64,000 nucleotides of DNA, taken from a virus. Taxonomy: Duplodnaviria; Heunggongvirae; Uroviricota; Caudoviricetes. The notes under the pieces are model-generated. The model was not told the origin of the DNA. It was given only the letters and a program-made list of their open reading frames with translations, and did not search any database. The stretch is from the IMG/VR virus record IMGVR_UViG_3300021399_000141. The stretch is one strand, 5' to 3'. A program made the position numbers and the translations under genes. Below are positions 16,540 to 24,244 of this stretch, in pieces (position 1 is the first letter of the stretch; every line of letters begins with the position of its first letter).

Positions 16540-16742
16540 AACCTCTCCAACCACTCCCTTCGTGACATAGGTCAATATCCAAGGGCTGTTACTATCCTAG
16601 AGACCAATTCAAGCAACCGATATGTGAATAGTTGGATTTGTATTGAAACTTCTCCAGCTATACCCTTCGTGACATGGGTCAATATCCAAGGGCTGTTACT
16701 ATCCTAGAGACCAATTCAAGTAACCGGTGAGTGAATAGTTGG
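16540..16742. repeat. two tandem copies of an approximately 100-bp repeat
   Basis: copies 16540-16644 and 16646-16742 about 90 percent identical; each ends in gtgaatagttgg, also found at the adjacent tRNA-like gene. Confidence 0.7.
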
Positions 16743-16797
16743 GCTCGAACCAACGACATACCTTCTTTGGTGCTCTACCATCTGAGCTATATTCACT
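16731..16797 (-). ncRNA. tRNA-like gene lacking a canonical anticodon arm
   Basis: perfect acceptor GTGAATA/TATTCAC, D-arm GCTC-AGATGGTA-GAGC, T-arm GTTGG-TTCGAGC-CCAAC, but only 17 nt between D and T arms. Confidence 0.4.
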
Positions 16798-16869
16798 AAC
16801 TTACTTTATCCATAGATTTCATGAGACTTTAAGCGCGCTCTATCTCCTACGTCTATCCAATTTCAGCTG

Positions 16870-16956
16870 CGGAGAGTGCAGGATTCGAACCTGCGAGTCC
16901 CTTACGGGACTACTGGTTTAGCAAACCAGCGCCTTCAGCCACTCGGCCAACTCTCC
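16870..16956 (-). tRNA. tRNA-Ser (GCT)
   Basis: type II with long variable arm; anticodon loop TTGCTAA. Confidence 0.7.
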
Positions 16957-17067
16957 AAACAATACTCCAATACCCAATGGTTTGAATACTCAGGGACGAA
17001 CATTTGACTGTTCCAGATAATGATACAGGTTGCGATCCTATATGTCACATCTGCACTGGGATTCTGG

Positions 17068-17157
17068 CGGAGAGTGAGGGATTCGAACCCCCGGGACGCT
17101 CATCACGCCCACGAATTTTCAAGATTCGCACGATAAACCGGACTCTGACAACTCCCC
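17068..17157 (-). tRNA. tRNA-Ser (TGA)
   Basis: type II; anticodon loop CTTGAAA; promoter motif immediately upstream. Confidence 0.65.
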
Positions 17158-17164
17158 ATTTATT

Positions 17165-17210
17165 GTTCTTCTATATAATATATAAGAAAGAATGTCAAAA
17201 TTTTAGTGGG
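17165..17210 (-). promoter_or_regulatory. phage promoter motif CACTAAAATTTTGACA-N-TTATATATTATATAG upstream of tRNA-Ser
   Basis: member of the roughly 20-copy bipartite motif family; 30 nt upstream of tRNA 5-prime end. Confidence 0.5.
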
Positions 17211-17312
17211 AAAATAAAAAAAAAATAAGGTATTATCCTTCTAGGTCATCCATCAGAGGACGTTCATCCACTTCAAATACCGGTTCTCTTTTCATAATAA
17301 TCCTTTTTTTTG

Positions 17313-17386
17313 TGGACCCTGTGGGACTTGAACCCACGACCCCCTGCTTGCAAAGCAGGTGCTCTAGCCAACTGAGCTAAGGGCCC
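17313..17386 (-). tRNA. tRNA-Ala (TGC)
   Basis: anticodon loop TTTGCAA; D-arm GCTCAGTTGGCTAGAGC. Confidence 0.7.
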
Positions 17387-17537
17387 TTAGAGGCGGTGCA
17401 ACGACTTTTCTATCCGCCGTTAAGTCACTACGTCCGTTGCTGACGTCTGTGTCGTTCCTACTCCATCTTGTACACAGAAGTTCGCTGAAACTATCTTTTT
17501 GTTGCCACATTGTTAAGAGGTGTGGAGCCGCGAAAGG

Positions 17538-17610
17538 AGCCTCCTGTCAGACTCGAACTGACGACCTGTTCATTACAAGTGAACCGCTCTACCAACTGAG
17601 CTAAAGAGGC
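17538..17610 (-). tRNA. tRNA-Thr (TGT)
   Basis: anticodon loop CTTGTAA; T-arm GTCAG-TTCGAGT-CTGAC. Confidence 0.7.
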
Positions 17611-17614
17611 AAAA

Positions 17615-17636
17615 AGCAACCGGCGAAGGTTGCTCT
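17615..17636 (-). terminator. hairpin plus T-run immediately upstream of tRNA-Thr
   Basis: gcaaccggcgaaggttgc stem followed by TTTTT on minus strand. Confidence 0.4.
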
Positions 17637-18487
17637 ATGTCATCTGCCTGAGAACTTAGGCTTTGGTGATATCATTGCGATAGGGTTGGACCTATCTGTT
17701 CACACTCTGTATTTCTACAGCGTAGATACCATGCACATCAGTTTTGAAAAACTGCCAAACTCTTACTCAACATCGTCGTAAATTTCCTTTCTGTACCACC
17801 TACTTGCGGATTCGAAGGGTGCCCCCTCCTCGGTCGATACTTACTTGTACTCTTTTGTGATTTTCCTTGCGAGAATCTCACATCCTCGTATTGCAGAGGA
17901 ACAAGTGCATTTTAGATGTCAAGTGTCGCACACTTTTGCTGACCTATATTAAACTTTACTGATTCATTATCGTTGTCAGTAGTAGGGATCGAACCTACAG
18001 TCTAGTAACCATTTTTAAGAGATGTGGTGCGACCCAACGCATTCGTACCTTTTGGATACGACCCACGTAAACACCTCTCTGTCCTTCGTGCTTCCTACAG
18101 CACTATTAACTGTCCGTTTCGTTCAAATCATTTCTGATGTTAAACTAGTCCTTCCGTGCAGCAGCAATTGATTAGGAGTTCTTTCACCGCTACCAACTTA
18201 AACCTTTATTGGGTTTTTATCCCTCAAGTCAGGAGTTTCACCCGACTCACTCGTACTTCAGTCTCACCATTTGGCATTGACGCTGATCCCTTTTGCGGAT
18301 TCTCCCATACGAGTGATGTTCTAGTTCTTTTCCGTGGACAGGTTCTTTTATCAACCTGCGCTCTAACTGTGTTACTGGGTTAGGGCTTTATAGTATTACT
18401 ACTTTATCCTTAACAGCTCCGAAAGCGAACTGGAGACCTTCCGCGGACACTTCCGCTAGTCTAACAAGGTGGTTTATTTCCTTGTTC

Positions 18488-18524
18488 AATTATAATATAT
18501 AGAAATGATCAAAAATTTTAGACC
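18488..18524 (-). promoter_or_regulatory. phage promoter motif variant (TCTAAAATTTTTGATCA ... TATATATTATAAT)
   Basis: heads an ORF-free roughly 850-nt minus-strand region. Confidence 0.4.
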
Positions 18525-18548
18525 TGGTGTATTTTTTTTTTGATTTTT

Positions 18549-22768: not shown

Positions 22769-22842
22769 TCCCGAGAACTGGGTTCGAACCAGTGACCTCG
22801 GCATTATGAGTGCCGCGCTCTGACCAGCTGAGCTATCTCGGG
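22769..22842 (-). tRNA. tRNA-Met (CAT)
   Basis: perfect cloverleaf; loop CTCATAA. Confidence 0.7.
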
Positions 22843-22871
22843 ATTTGAGAGTCTGAATCTTCTATGCCTGT

Positions 22872-23156
22872 CTACGCCATTTTGTTATGTGTTTGTATAA
22901 GTTCTCTATCATTAGGAAAATGTTTTAAGTATCTTGTCACCATGTCCTCGTTCTCAATGACATATGTTTTGAAGAACTCTTTTTTAGATTCTTCCCACAT
23001 TTCTACGCGTAGTCTTAAAGCAGGCTTGAAAGTTTCTTCTTTGTGATTCTCACAAGTCTCCGTAGGAAGGAGTATCTTCCATTCATCTTTATGAAGACAA
23101 CATGGATCACCGTCCCATATCTTGAAATATTTGCAATATAGACAAATGTTTTCCAT
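22872..23156 (-). CDS. small Cys-rich (zinc-finger-like) protein
   Basis: ORF track 94 aa, CxxC...CC...C..H pattern. Confidence 0.4.
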   Translation of the reverse strand: MENICLYCKYFKIWDGDPCCLHKDEWKILLPTETCENHKEETFKPALRLRVEMWEESKKEFFKTYVIENEDMVTRYLKHFPNDRELIQTHNKMA

Positions 23157-23158
23157 AG

Positions 23159-23232
23159 CAGCCCCACCGAGGATCGAACTCGGATTTCCACCTTGAGAGA
23201 GTGACGTCCTGTACCGGTTAGACGACAGGGCC
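23159..23232 (-). tRNA. tRNA-Glu (CTC), tentative
   Basis: T-arm CCGAG-TTCGATC-CTCGG; loop CTCTCAA; acceptor with several GU pairs. Confidence 0.4.
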
Positions 23233-23570
23233 AGATGCGACTGCTGTCAGCTCCTGTCCGTCGCGAGACCGTATGCTCTATACTTGTTGGGCATACTACA
23301 ACTCTACCTGTCTTTCCAGGTGTCTAGCCTATTGACGAGATAGGACTTTGGTCGAGATATCAGGAGTCGAACCTGTACCATTGCTGATAAAGAGGCTATT
23401 AGACTAGTATTATTCACCTCTCACCTCCCAGACCCATATGGGCGTGCGCCGTACACTATATCCCGTAATTTAGTCGCACTATCGCAGGACTATAAGCTCC
23501 CGTGCGCCTGACCTAAGCAGTACTGAAGAATTGTCAGGAGGTCCTATGTACAGCTTGAACCTATTCTTTG

Positions 23571-23643
23571 TGACCAATCAGGGAGTCGAACCCTGCTACC
23601 CAGTTTTGCAGACTGGTGCCTAAACCGCCCGGACCCATTGGTC
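23571..23643 (-). tRNA. tRNA-Cys (GCA)
   Basis: perfect acceptor GACCAAT/ATTGGTC; loop CTGCAAA. Confidence 0.65.
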
Positions 23644-23648
23644 ATTGG

Positions 23649-23721
23649 TGACCCCGCAGGGGCTCGAACCCTGGACCCGCTGATTAAGAGTCAGCTGCTC
23701 TACCAACTGAGCTACGGAGTC
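23649..23721 (-). tRNA. tRNA-Lys (CTT), CCA encoded at 23646-23648
   Basis: loop CTCTTAA; canonical D and T arms. Confidence 0.7.
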
Positions 23722-23936
23722 ATGGTCAGGACAGAAGTTTTTACGGGTTATTCTTCGACCTCTCCTACTCTCTAGAAGCGCTCTATTTACATACATCAGT
23801 ATTTTCACTTCAACGTTTGCAACCATTTCAGCTTCTATAACTTTCATGTTTCAGAATCCAACAAACCGTTTCATATTGGCGTCCCGCAACTACTAATGAA
23901 TGTCTTCTTCTTCCCCGTGCCTGCGCTATATCCTGG

Positions 23937-24009
23937 AGCGGAAAACGGGACTCGAACCCGCGACCTGTGCCTTGGCAAGGCACCGCTCTACCAGCTGAGC
24001 TATTTCCGC
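23937..24009 (-). tRNA. tRNA-Gly (GCC), CCA encoded
   Basis: loop TTGCCAA. Confidence 0.7.
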
Positions 24010-24013
24010 GTGG

Positions 24014-24090
24014 CGCACATCAGAGGACTCGAACCTCAATCTCCCAAAACTCCTTTCGGGCGTAATTTCCAGTTATACTATCCGTGCAAA
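24014..24090 (-). ncRNA. tRNA-like gene with anticodon arm replaced by a 7-bp tetraloop hairpin; CCA encoded
   Basis: T-arm and acceptor present, but the central region is CCCGAAA-GGAG-TTTTGGG, so no 7-nt anticodon loop. Confidence 0.4.
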
Positions 24091-24093
24091 TGG

Positions 24094-24166
24094 AGCCCAG
24101 AGTCAGACTCGAACTGACGACCTCTTCCTTACCATGGAAGTGCTCTACCAACTGAGCTATCTGGGC
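24094..24166 (-). tRNA. tRNA-Thr (GGT), CCA encoded
   Basis: perfect acceptor GCCCAGA/TCTGGGC; loop ATGGTAA. Confidence 0.7.
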
Positions 24167-24171
24167 TTATC

Positions 24172-24244
24172 GTCTCCGAACCGGACTTGAACCGGCGCCC
24201 TCTCCCCTCGTCCGGGAGCGTTCTACCAACTGAACTATCGGGAC
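24172..24244 (-). tRNA. tRNA-like with non-canonical anticodon loop GGACGAG (possible ACG)
   Basis: good D-arm GTTC-AGTTGGTA-GAAC and T-arm GCCGG-TTCAAGT-CCGGT; loop lacks U33; two acceptor mismatches. Confidence 0.35.

Follow-up and report, generated by a model that had tools for sequence, protein, structure and literature searches.

Does the tRNA array of a phage hold RNAs that have the body of a tRNA but are unable to decode, and, if so, are such RNAs kept for a purpose or are they left over from other genes? The question is raised by a 64,000-nt stretch of the IMG/VR virus record IMGVR_UViG_3300021399_000141 (the window, taken here at its full length), in which three loci (loci 1, 2 and 3; Table 1) lie within a dense array of tRNA genes. 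A sequence-only reading had proposed that they form one class of tRNA mimics, with intact acceptor, D and T arms and no functional anticodon arm, which would serve as decoys or sponges for host nucleases. Having compared the loci with their counterparts in related contigs (labelled L001, L010 and so on), we lean, with restrained confidence, towards a different answer, namely that loci 1-3 are relics of tRNA-array turnover and not one purpose-built class. This answer is founded on the orthology of the loci, on their lesions and on their patchy distribution, which we observed directly.

Structure of the three loci

We compared each locus with a canonical anticodon arm, defined as a 5-bp stem and a 7-nt loop with pyrimidine-32, U33 and purine-37, and with the Rfam tRNA model RF00005 (curated threshold 29 bits). 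None of the three has a canonical anticodon arm, and their description as tRNA-shaped or tRNA-derived RNAs that cannot decode normally was therefore upheld. They lie on the array strand with tRNA-like spacing, as had also been pointed out: a tRNA-Thr gene starts 5 nt downstream of locus 3, and locus 2 occupies the 81-nt gap from this tRNA-Thr to a tRNA-Gly. A scan of the 64 kb for uncalled T arms (5-bp stem with the loop TTCRANN) gave none on the plus strand and nine on the minus strand, eight of which fall in intergenic parts of the array. Since the plus strand has no T-arm-like hairpin, loci 1-3 are not chance matches. Besides them, the array contains at least six further uncalled elements with a T arm, and every relative has such elements, in a number of about one quarter to one half of its called tRNAs.

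The acceptor of locus 1 consists of 7 bp and an eighth A-1:U73 pair, all Watson-Crick; its D arm is GCUC/GAGC and its T arm GUUGG-UUCGAGC-CCAAC. Between the D and T stems there are exactly 17 nt, ACCAAAGAAGGUAUGUC, the number stated before, and they form only a 12-nt mini-hairpin at the anticodon position (ACC-AAAGAA-GGU, with a 3-bp stem and a 6-nt loop). The Rfam alignment has 9 nt where the tRNA model has 15. The minimum-energy fold of locus 1 is a cloverleaf with a folding z of -2.4, equal to that of real tRNAs, and ARAGORN makes no call at this position.

In locus 2, four Watson-Crick pairs and one G-U pair were found among the seven acceptor positions, three of four pairs in the D stem and four of five in the T arm, that is, three, one and one non-standard pairs, respectively. 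The 7-bp hairpin with a GGAG tetraloop at the anticodon position (CCCGAAA-GGAG-UUUUGGG; alternatively 5 bp with an 8-nt loop) and the encoded CCA (24011-24013) are both present as described earlier. Its minimum-energy fold does not take the form of a cloverleaf, and the folding z is -0.95.

Locus 3 has an intact anticodon stem and the 7-nt loop GGACGAG, which carries G32 and G33 and, as had been reported, lacks U33. A 1-nt insertion bulges the 3' strand of its acceptor, or else the top of the acceptor has three non-Watson-Crick pairs; the Rfam alignment is local, covering only model positions 4-67, and the z of -1.0 is no better than that of shuffled sequences. ARAGORN calls locus 3 a tRNA-Arg(ACG), only by tolerating G32, G33 and the three non-Watson-Crick acceptor pairs. 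Thus, the picture of near-perfect acceptors with canonical D and T arms applies to locus 1, whose acceptor is perfect, but neither to the bulged locus 3 nor to locus 2 with its five non-standard pairs.

Among the 213 ARAGORN tRNAs of the clade, U33 is missing in 11: nine have C33 (about 4%), and the two with G33 are locus 3 and its L001 ortholog only. The C33 examples include the tRNA-Met of the window (15971-16045, minus strand, loop CCCAUAA), the Asn and Gly tRNAs of L001 and two Thr tRNAs of L011. The C33 tRNAs may be an adaptation against anticodon-loop nucleases.

Locus 3 and the neighbouring tRNA-Thr gene

The segment of 86 nt upstream of locus 3 is conserved in L001 and L029, which anchors the orthology of the locus. 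Behind this segment, L029 carries at 1047-1120 a canonical tRNA-Thr(GGU), with an anticodon stem (CUCCC/GGGAG) identical to that of locus 3 and the loop GUGGUAA, and a second tRNA-Thr follows it, as in the window. Of the 15 differences between locus 3 and the L029 gene, the 7 loop columns hold five (hypergeometric P = 0.003); in addition, the 3' strand of the acceptor has gained one base. The L001 ortholog (6208-6277) has a 13-nt arm, CUCC-GCGGA-GGAG, which is 4 nt shorter; the reading forced on it by ARAGORN has another anticodon (CGG) and a lost D stem. The gene is absent in L011, where a conserved small open reading frame (ORF) runs straight to the tRNA-Thr, and in L019. Since the nucleotide identities of ORF107 place L029 in an outgroup clade, the intact gene is the outgroup state, and the clade of the window has either a lesioned gene or none. 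Pattern searches of IMG/VR for locus 3 or its upstream segment returned nothing beyond a contig already known, and the upstream-segment pattern had no match in a collection of 185,579 genomes.

The tRNA-Thr downstream of locus 3 now has the anticodon GGU, and its orthologs read UGU in L001 and AGU in L011 and L029. Its arm, CUUCC-AUGGUAA-GGAAG, matches the arm of the L029 ortholog of locus 3 at 14 of 17 positions. Anticodon-keeping tRNA orthologs in the clade mostly have an arm identity of 88-100%. Against this constancy the scrambled loop of locus 3 indicates that its decoding constraint was lost; for the same reason, we rejected a general hypervariability of anticodon arms in the clade, as in an arms race. 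Judged by these alignments, locus 3 is a former tRNA-Thr(GGU) gene whose ortholog is intact in L029. In the simplest history, the GGU arm would have been transplanted to the body of the neighbouring tRNA-Thr, and the superseded copy would then have lost its loop (five of seven bases) and gained the acceptor bulge.

Locus 1 and its long orthologs

Long orthologs of locus 1 are present in L029 (1446-1570), L019 (9069-9191) and L030, where the 5' end is cut off. These RNAs of about 125 nt have the flanks and the acceptor, D and T arms of locus 1, but their D and T arms are separated by 72 nt. Aligned to L029, locus 1 falls into two halves that lie about 70 nt apart, and relative to L029 and L019 there is an internal deletion of about 56 nt. 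The long forms of L029 and L019 differ in nine columns with all 34 predicted pairs unbroken, including one double-compensatory pair in the T stem.

The short form was found only in the window and in L014 (5182-5248), where it is identical. We did not count this identity as evidence of conservation, because the whole segment from the Ser gene to locus 1 is about 100% identical to the window, with flanking spacers equally identical; the PNKP of L014 is only about 80% identical. L001 and L010 do not have the element. In the window, locus 1 is immediately followed downstream by a tandem duplication with a 107-nt unit, which re-copies the last 13 nt of the locus. The unit is in single copy in L001 and L010 and in tandem only in the window, and the duplication is a rearrangement scar next to locus 1. 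The body of locus 1 resembles the tRNA-His type of the clade, eighth acceptor pair included. As far as can be read from these alignments, locus 1 arose by deletion from a conserved tRNA-like RNA of about 125 nt and not from a decoding tRNA; a copy of this RNA would have lost about 56 nt of its insert beside the 107-nt duplication.

The segment from locus 1 to tRNA-Glu(UUC) (16306-16730, minus strand) comprises about 430 nt of non-coding sequence, is about 80-90% identical in L001 and L010, and contains the 107-nt unit. It may be another non-coding RNA.

Locus 2

No ortholog of locus 2 was found in the relatives compared, and no other locus matches it. The exact hairpin of locus 2 had four matches in IMG/VR, which we discarded, as all lie by chance within one protein-coding sequence. 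The CCA of locus 2 fits an origin from an old tRNA gene, since both flanking tRNAs encode CCA too; they are among about five normal tRNAs of the array that do so. Locus 2 would be an older tRNA gene in a more advanced state of decay. At its position, L001 (6356-6447) and L011 (1831-1921) have an unrelated spacer of 92 nt, 89% identical between them, with a hairpin that shows compensatory changes (GGUGUU/AACACC versus CGCGUU/AACGCG), which suggests that the spacer is a small structured RNA.

Transcription and processing

No terminator-like sites were found on the minus strand across the 12-kb array. A promoter-like motif, CACTAAAA-N~15-TTATATATTAT-ATAGAAGAACA (minus strand), occurs in four copies, at 27888, 22644, 18501 and 17184; a sigma-70 promoter scan was uninformative for this host. 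With no minus-strand terminators and only four such motifs, loci 1-3 are very probably co-transcribed with the tRNAs, which agrees with the earlier suggestion that they are transcribed and processed; they lie in multi-gene transcription units, beside RNA-repair genes. They are probably also excised from these transcripts, as their T arms and terminal helices suggest. Because they keep a T arm and an acceptor-like helix within polycistronic units, RNase P and the enzymes that process 3' ends would probably still release them, and they would probably survive as small RNAs that do not decode and that have hardly any function, or none, of their own.

Other relics and tRNA-bodied RNAs in the clade

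The window tRNA-Asp at 24419-24493 has an ortholog in L001 (about 5975-6031) that has cleanly lost the anticodon arm by a 22-nt deletion and has acquired mismatches in the acceptor and D stem; another tRNA-Asp is retained in L001. The loss of this arm indicates that anticodon-less relics do arise as by-products in these arrays.

The array also contains two conserved RNAs with a tRNA body and a long insert, X22508 and X23376 (Table 1). X22508, with orthologs in L011 (3428-3554) and L021 (4194-4319), has a perfect 7-bp acceptor, a D arm and a T arm, a variable 6-nt loop at the anticodon position, and a highly conserved insert of about 60 nt that forms two hairpins. Over the window, L011 and L021, none of its 35 predicted pairs is broken and four are double-compensatory. 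The orthologs of X23376, 113-123 nt long, are at 2583-2695 in L011, 6914-7026 in L001 and 5880-6002 in L021; in this RNA a tetraloop hairpin stands where the anticodon would be and the conserved insert is about 55 nt long, and over the four sequences none of 32 predicted pairs is broken and four are double-compensatory. In both RNAs conservation is higher in the inserts than in the stems, and the loop that takes the anticodon position is variable. Neither belongs to an Rfam family, and neither these two RNAs nor the long locus 1 matched any GenBank phage in BLAST. We also rejected the possibility that the elements with long inserts are tRNAs with an intron, as the insert follows a closed hairpin and its excision restores no 7-nt loop with U33; group I introns of bacterial tRNA genes are, moreover, far longer than these inserts.

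Further elements of the array deserve a record. One of 147 nt (26897-27043, minus strand) has a T arm at 26920-26904 and a 7/7 acceptor partner at 27043, with no ortholog among the relatives fetched. A large RNA resembling GOLLD lies at 17645-18079 (minus strand; Rfam 104.5 bits, E = 4.6e-27, below the threshold of 150 bits); the sequence is non-coding up to about 18480, and a T-arm-like hairpin at 17998-17982 is kept in L011 and L014. The motif copy at 18501 precedes this RNA, and the copy at 22644 is just upstream of X22508. ARAGORN labels 26768-26841 (minus strand) as 'tRNA-???', with a 6-nt anticodon loop, AUUCUA; its ortholog in L001 (3905-3980), uncalled by ARAGORN, has the identical acceptor and D and T arms that are similar, while the sequence at the anticodon position differs and is longer. 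The 'tRNA-Ala(UGC)' at 25115-25187 (minus strand) is degenerate: its T stem has 3 bp, its acceptor contains mismatches and Rfam scores it at 32.8 bits. Even so, it is 98-100% identical in L001 and L011, and a normal tRNA-Ala(UGC) is present at 17312-17386. A second T arm (25017-25001), followed by a strand complementary to the 5' end of the degenerate element, is found also in L011, and 24994-25187 (minus strand) could thus be a 194-nt element with two T arms. A T-arm-like hairpin stands alone about 15 nt after tRNA-Gln(CUG) (26095-26111, minus strand) and is kept in L001 (4573-4589). Long elements with two T arms, in which the 5' acceptor strand pairs with the strand after the second T arm, occur in L019 (8755-8875), L023 (5619-5768) and L024 (13451-13570), indicating that duplication of tRNA 3' halves is recurrent in the clade.

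Comparison with known systems

In the tRNA array units of bacteria, plasmids and phages, tRNA genes are known to lie together with pseudogenes (PMC4758250). Loci 1-3 resemble such pseudogenes in that they lie in a dense array on the same strand, carry disabling lesions, have a patchy presence and have an intact isoacceptor near, and in that one of them, locus 3, derives from an identifiable gene, tRNA-Thr(GGU). They differ in that the lesions strike the anticodon arm while all stem substitutions preserve pairing, and in that locus 1 stems from a longer tRNA-like RNA and from no decoding tRNA.

The tRNA cluster of T4 holds two RNAs on the tRNA strand directly after a tRNA, species 1 (rnaC, 139 nt) and species 2 (rnaD, 119 nt), whose roles have been unexplained for decades (PMC3014915). 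The rnaC sequence ends in a perfect 3' T arm (CCGGG-UUCGAAU-CCCGG), and its 3' tail pairs with the 5' end. In plan and size it is like X22508, X23376 and the long locus 1 of L029 and L019; however, its terminal helix has only 3 bp in the predicted fold and no D arm is evident, and rnaD has no T loop. Both are 120-140 nt long, whereas loci 1-3 are tRNA-sized (68-77 nt), and all-against-all BLAST gave no sequence match to rnaC or rnaD. The anatomy of locus 1 and its long relatives, with acceptor, T and D arms kept, is also that of the engineered tRNA scaffold of Ponchon and Dardel, in which the anticodon stem-loop is replaced by a hairpin or an insert and which is processed precisely and is stable in E. 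coli (PMC3753655). That scaffold is man-made, and phages may make natural use of its design.

Among non-decoding RNAs, YrlA (RF02553) shares tRNA-like T and D arms, an acceptor and a link to RNA-repair genes (Rsr, RtcB), but its 5' and 3' ends sit in the Ro-binding stem and not in an acceptor. Jumbo phages sometimes carry a Ro/TROVE partner (PMC7824862); no Ro/TROVE gene was noticed here, where no search aimed at one was made. We rejected an identity with YrlA, the match scoring 23.6 bits against a threshold of 69 and spanning locus 3 and the next tRNA. The mascRNA of MALAT1 and the vtRNAs of murid herpesvirus 68 likewise have non-decoding tRNA-like bodies, which are recognised by RNase P and RNase Z; they belong to another domain of life, with other transcription and partners and no homology to the loci. 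The Rfam match to mascRNA is at chance level and lies on a real tRNA-Leu. We regard the YrlA, mascRNA, skipping-rope and plastid-UTR matches in Rfam as sub-threshold echoes of tRNA shape.

Origin and possible roles of loci 1-3

If loci 1-3 are by-products of the rapid birth, death and rearrangement of array genes, one would look for an intact ortholog elsewhere, for lesions that differ between lineages, for a functional gene with the same anticodon and for substitutions that break the stems. An intact ortholog was found for locus 3; the orthologs of locus 1 are long RNAs, and locus 2 is an orphan. Lesions and losses do differ between lineages, with a changed loop and an insertion in the window, a shorter arm in L001 and absence in L011 and L019, and the tRNA-Thr(GGU) beside locus 3 is a functional gene with the same anticodon.

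Several observations weigh against an origin as mere by-products. Stem-breaking substitutions were not seen in loci 1 and 3, although signs of decay are present in locus 2. In the window and in L001 alike, substitution relative to L029 has left every acceptor, D and T pair of locus 3 intact, with five stem substitutions in the former and ten in the latter, including three double-compensatory pairs; under neutral substitution, such unbroken stems have P = 0.014 for the window and P = 0.0006 for L001. The same two G-U pairs were made Watson-Crick in the window and in L001 via different changes. The derived states C5-G68, G49 and G73 are common to both, a hint that the lesion might predate their split; the body of locus 3 would then have been kept without decoding. 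For locus 1, long neutral decay is unlikely, because its stems are perfect and its differences from the nearest tRNA relatives are fully compensated. Finally, since X22508 and X23376 are conserved non-decoding tRNA-bodied RNAs in the same array, a function for an anticodon-less tRNA shape is plausible. The unbroken stems of locus 3 point either to recent lesions or to selection on the body after the loss of decoding. They could be explained within the turnover account if the lesions are recent; owing to them, functional mimicry and processing or scaffold roles also stay in play.

We regard it as rather doubtful that the loci are functional non-decoding mimics, with a body selected as a decoy, sponge, competitive substrate or partner of repair enzymes. 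Candidate targets would be factors that read the tRNA body or 3' end, for example nucleases that cleave the tail or acceptor, toxin transferases and modification enzymes, and a putative decoy role against enzymes reading the tRNA body is possible. The locus 3 orthologs, which took only structure-preserving stem substitutions while the anticodon arm was destroyed in both, are consistent with such a role, as are the folding of locus 1 and the presence of PNKP and cREC genes in the array. The C33 tRNAs and the arm switch of the Thr neighbour suggest pressure on anticodon loops. The proposal that the loci are decoys for anticodon nucleases has a weak mechanistic footing, as PrrC, RloC and colicin-type enzymes read the anticodon loop and should not bind an RNA without one. 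Nor is it supported that the loci form one class kept for this purpose: they have three different origins, and their anticodon-less forms, for which a search for conserved homologs had been suggested, are patchy and extend to at most one or two close lineages, with locus 3 deleted in L011 and L019. Furthermore, the acceptor of locus 3 in the window is destabilised by an insertion, and locus 2 bears little resemblance to a tRNA. Defences that target tRNA are numerous; one is reported to cleave tRNA tails (PMC12851939), and another cuts tRNA-Thr anticodon stems (PMC12445682). However, the documented counter-measure of phages, and the published means of rescue, is the nuclease-resistant decoding tRNA and not a decoy (PMC12445682, PMC10264068). 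Our literature searches found no described precedent for a tRNA-mimic decoy or sponge in phages, and the statement of the sequence-only reading that anticodon-less phage tRNA mimics had not been described as a class is in agreement with them.

It is unlikely that the loci act as processing punctuation, by providing acceptor and T-arm sites at which RNase P and 3'-end enzymes would part adjacent tRNAs, small-ORF mRNAs and ncRNAs of a long polycistronic transcript, or, in the relatives with long inserts, as a stabilising tRNA scaffold. A 12-kb array without minus-strand terminators and with so few promoter-like motifs gives transcripts that need many cuts, and the shared scaffold plan of X22508, X23376 and the long locus 1, their inserts more conserved than their stems, would suit a scaffold, as would the perfect T arm at the end of T4 rnaC. 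But processing sites are already provided by the normal tRNAs that loci 2 and 3 adjoin, locus 1 has lost its would-be cargo insert, and relatives manage without loci 1-3. A still broader possibility, which we entertain only tentatively, is that the clade maintains non-decoding tRNA-bodied RNAs as natural 'tRNA scaffolds', stable carriers of RNA modules or else decoys for host enzymes that recognise the tRNA body, among them locus 1 and the locus 3 lineage, kept after the loss of cargo or decoding, with T4 species 1 as a member. In such RNAs the acceptor, D and T arms would be selected, and the anticodon arm would be replaced by mini-hairpins or by conserved inserts of 50-85 nt.

Very improbable, in our view, is that locus 3 is a working tRNA with an unconventional loop (ACG with G33) that escapes an anticodon nuclease. 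The ARAGORN call and a score above the Rfam tRNA threshold speak for it, and phage tRNAs are on record whose loop mutations let them escape nucleases (PMC10264068). On the other hand, both the pyrimidine-32 and the U33 rules are violated, G33 is unique to this lineage among the clade's tRNAs, the L001 ortholog can only be forced to CGG with its D stem lost, and the acceptor in the window is bulged. A normal tRNA-Arg(ACG) is present at 21863-21935, and a 7-nt loop is lacking altogether in loci 1 and 2.

The genome and its tRNA array

The window comes from a T4-like myovirus with genes for a gp20-type portal, ThyX and an anaerobic NrdD. All of its near relatives are uncultured and represented by contigs of gut-type metagenomes; GenBank has no phage close to it. 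The tRNA array lies on the minus strand at 15971-28035. ARAGORN finds 36 genes in it, and Rfam adds a tRNA-Asp(GUC) missed by ARAGORN (27053-27125, minus strand, 52.5 bits), which is 96% identical to the tRNA-Asp of L011, so that the total is at least 37. Besides the PNKP and cREC genes (Table 1), a GNAT acetyltransferase gene is embedded in the array. A role for cREC in RNA repair has been proposed earlier (PMC7824862). PNKP homologs of about 50% identity (P0010) are located outside tRNA arrays and were of no use for synteny. An ORF of 107 amino acids inside the array (24510-24833, minus strand) is conserved and lipoprotein-like, with a signal peptide and an LNAC lipobox; it has about 100 metagenome homologs and is a handy synteny anchor. 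A tRNA with the anticodon CUA, which ARAGORN labels 'Pyl', is present in more distant relatives (L023 12807-12879, L024 8189-8261, L025 5509-5581) and suggests amber suppression or TAG recoding in that sub-clade.

Table 1. Position of the features of the window discussed in the text, with the evidence for each
Feature	Coordinates	Strand	Evidence
Locus 1, tRNA-bodied RNA gene	16730-16797	-	Rfam tRNA 45.9 bits, full length
Locus 2, sub-threshold tRNA-like element, presumed relic	24011-24087	-	Rfam tRNA 23.8 bits, threshold 29
Locus 3, tRNA-Thr(GGU) gene, probably superseded	24172-24244	-	ARAGORN drawing; Rfam local match 38.6 bits
Conserved segment upstream of locus 3, 86 nt	24245-24330	-	93-94% identical in L001/L029, BLAST and alignments
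Functional tRNA-Thr, anticodon now GGU	24091-24166	-	Rfam 69.7 bits
107-nt tandem duplication	16530-16742	-	Tandem Repeats Finder, 2.0 copies, 90% match
X22508, conserved 126-nt tRNA-bodied RNA	22485-22610	-	RNAalifold over window, L011, L021
X23376, conserved 113-nt tRNA-bodied RNA	23353-23465	-	RNAalifold over window, L011, L001, L021
PNKP, T4-type polynucleotide kinase-phosphatase	19408-20325	-	Pfam HAD_PNKP 2e-32 and AAA_33
cREC, cyclic-phosphate-processing receiver-domain gene, RNA-repair cassette	20707-21066	-	Pfam cREC_REC 8.4e-19

Implications

If the loci were tRNA mimics as first proposed, they would represent a new class of phage counter-defence; the evidence points instead to the ordinary debris of turnover. 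They also call for caution, as such elements are either overlooked by structure-aware finders (loci 1 and 2) or given a wrong identity (locus 3 as tRNA-Arg), so that the tRNA repertoires of phages come out inflated or distorted. Locus 3 and its neighbour offer a clear example of an anticodon arm that passes to the tRNA body next to it as the old gene decays, and evidence that a tRNA body can remain structurally intact after the anticodon is lost. More interesting as a lead than loci 1-3 themselves are the RNAs with a tRNA body and a long insert, which are conserved and covary in a clade of which many relatives have been sampled; they provide a comparative handle on the 50-year-old question of what the small stable RNAs of T4 do.

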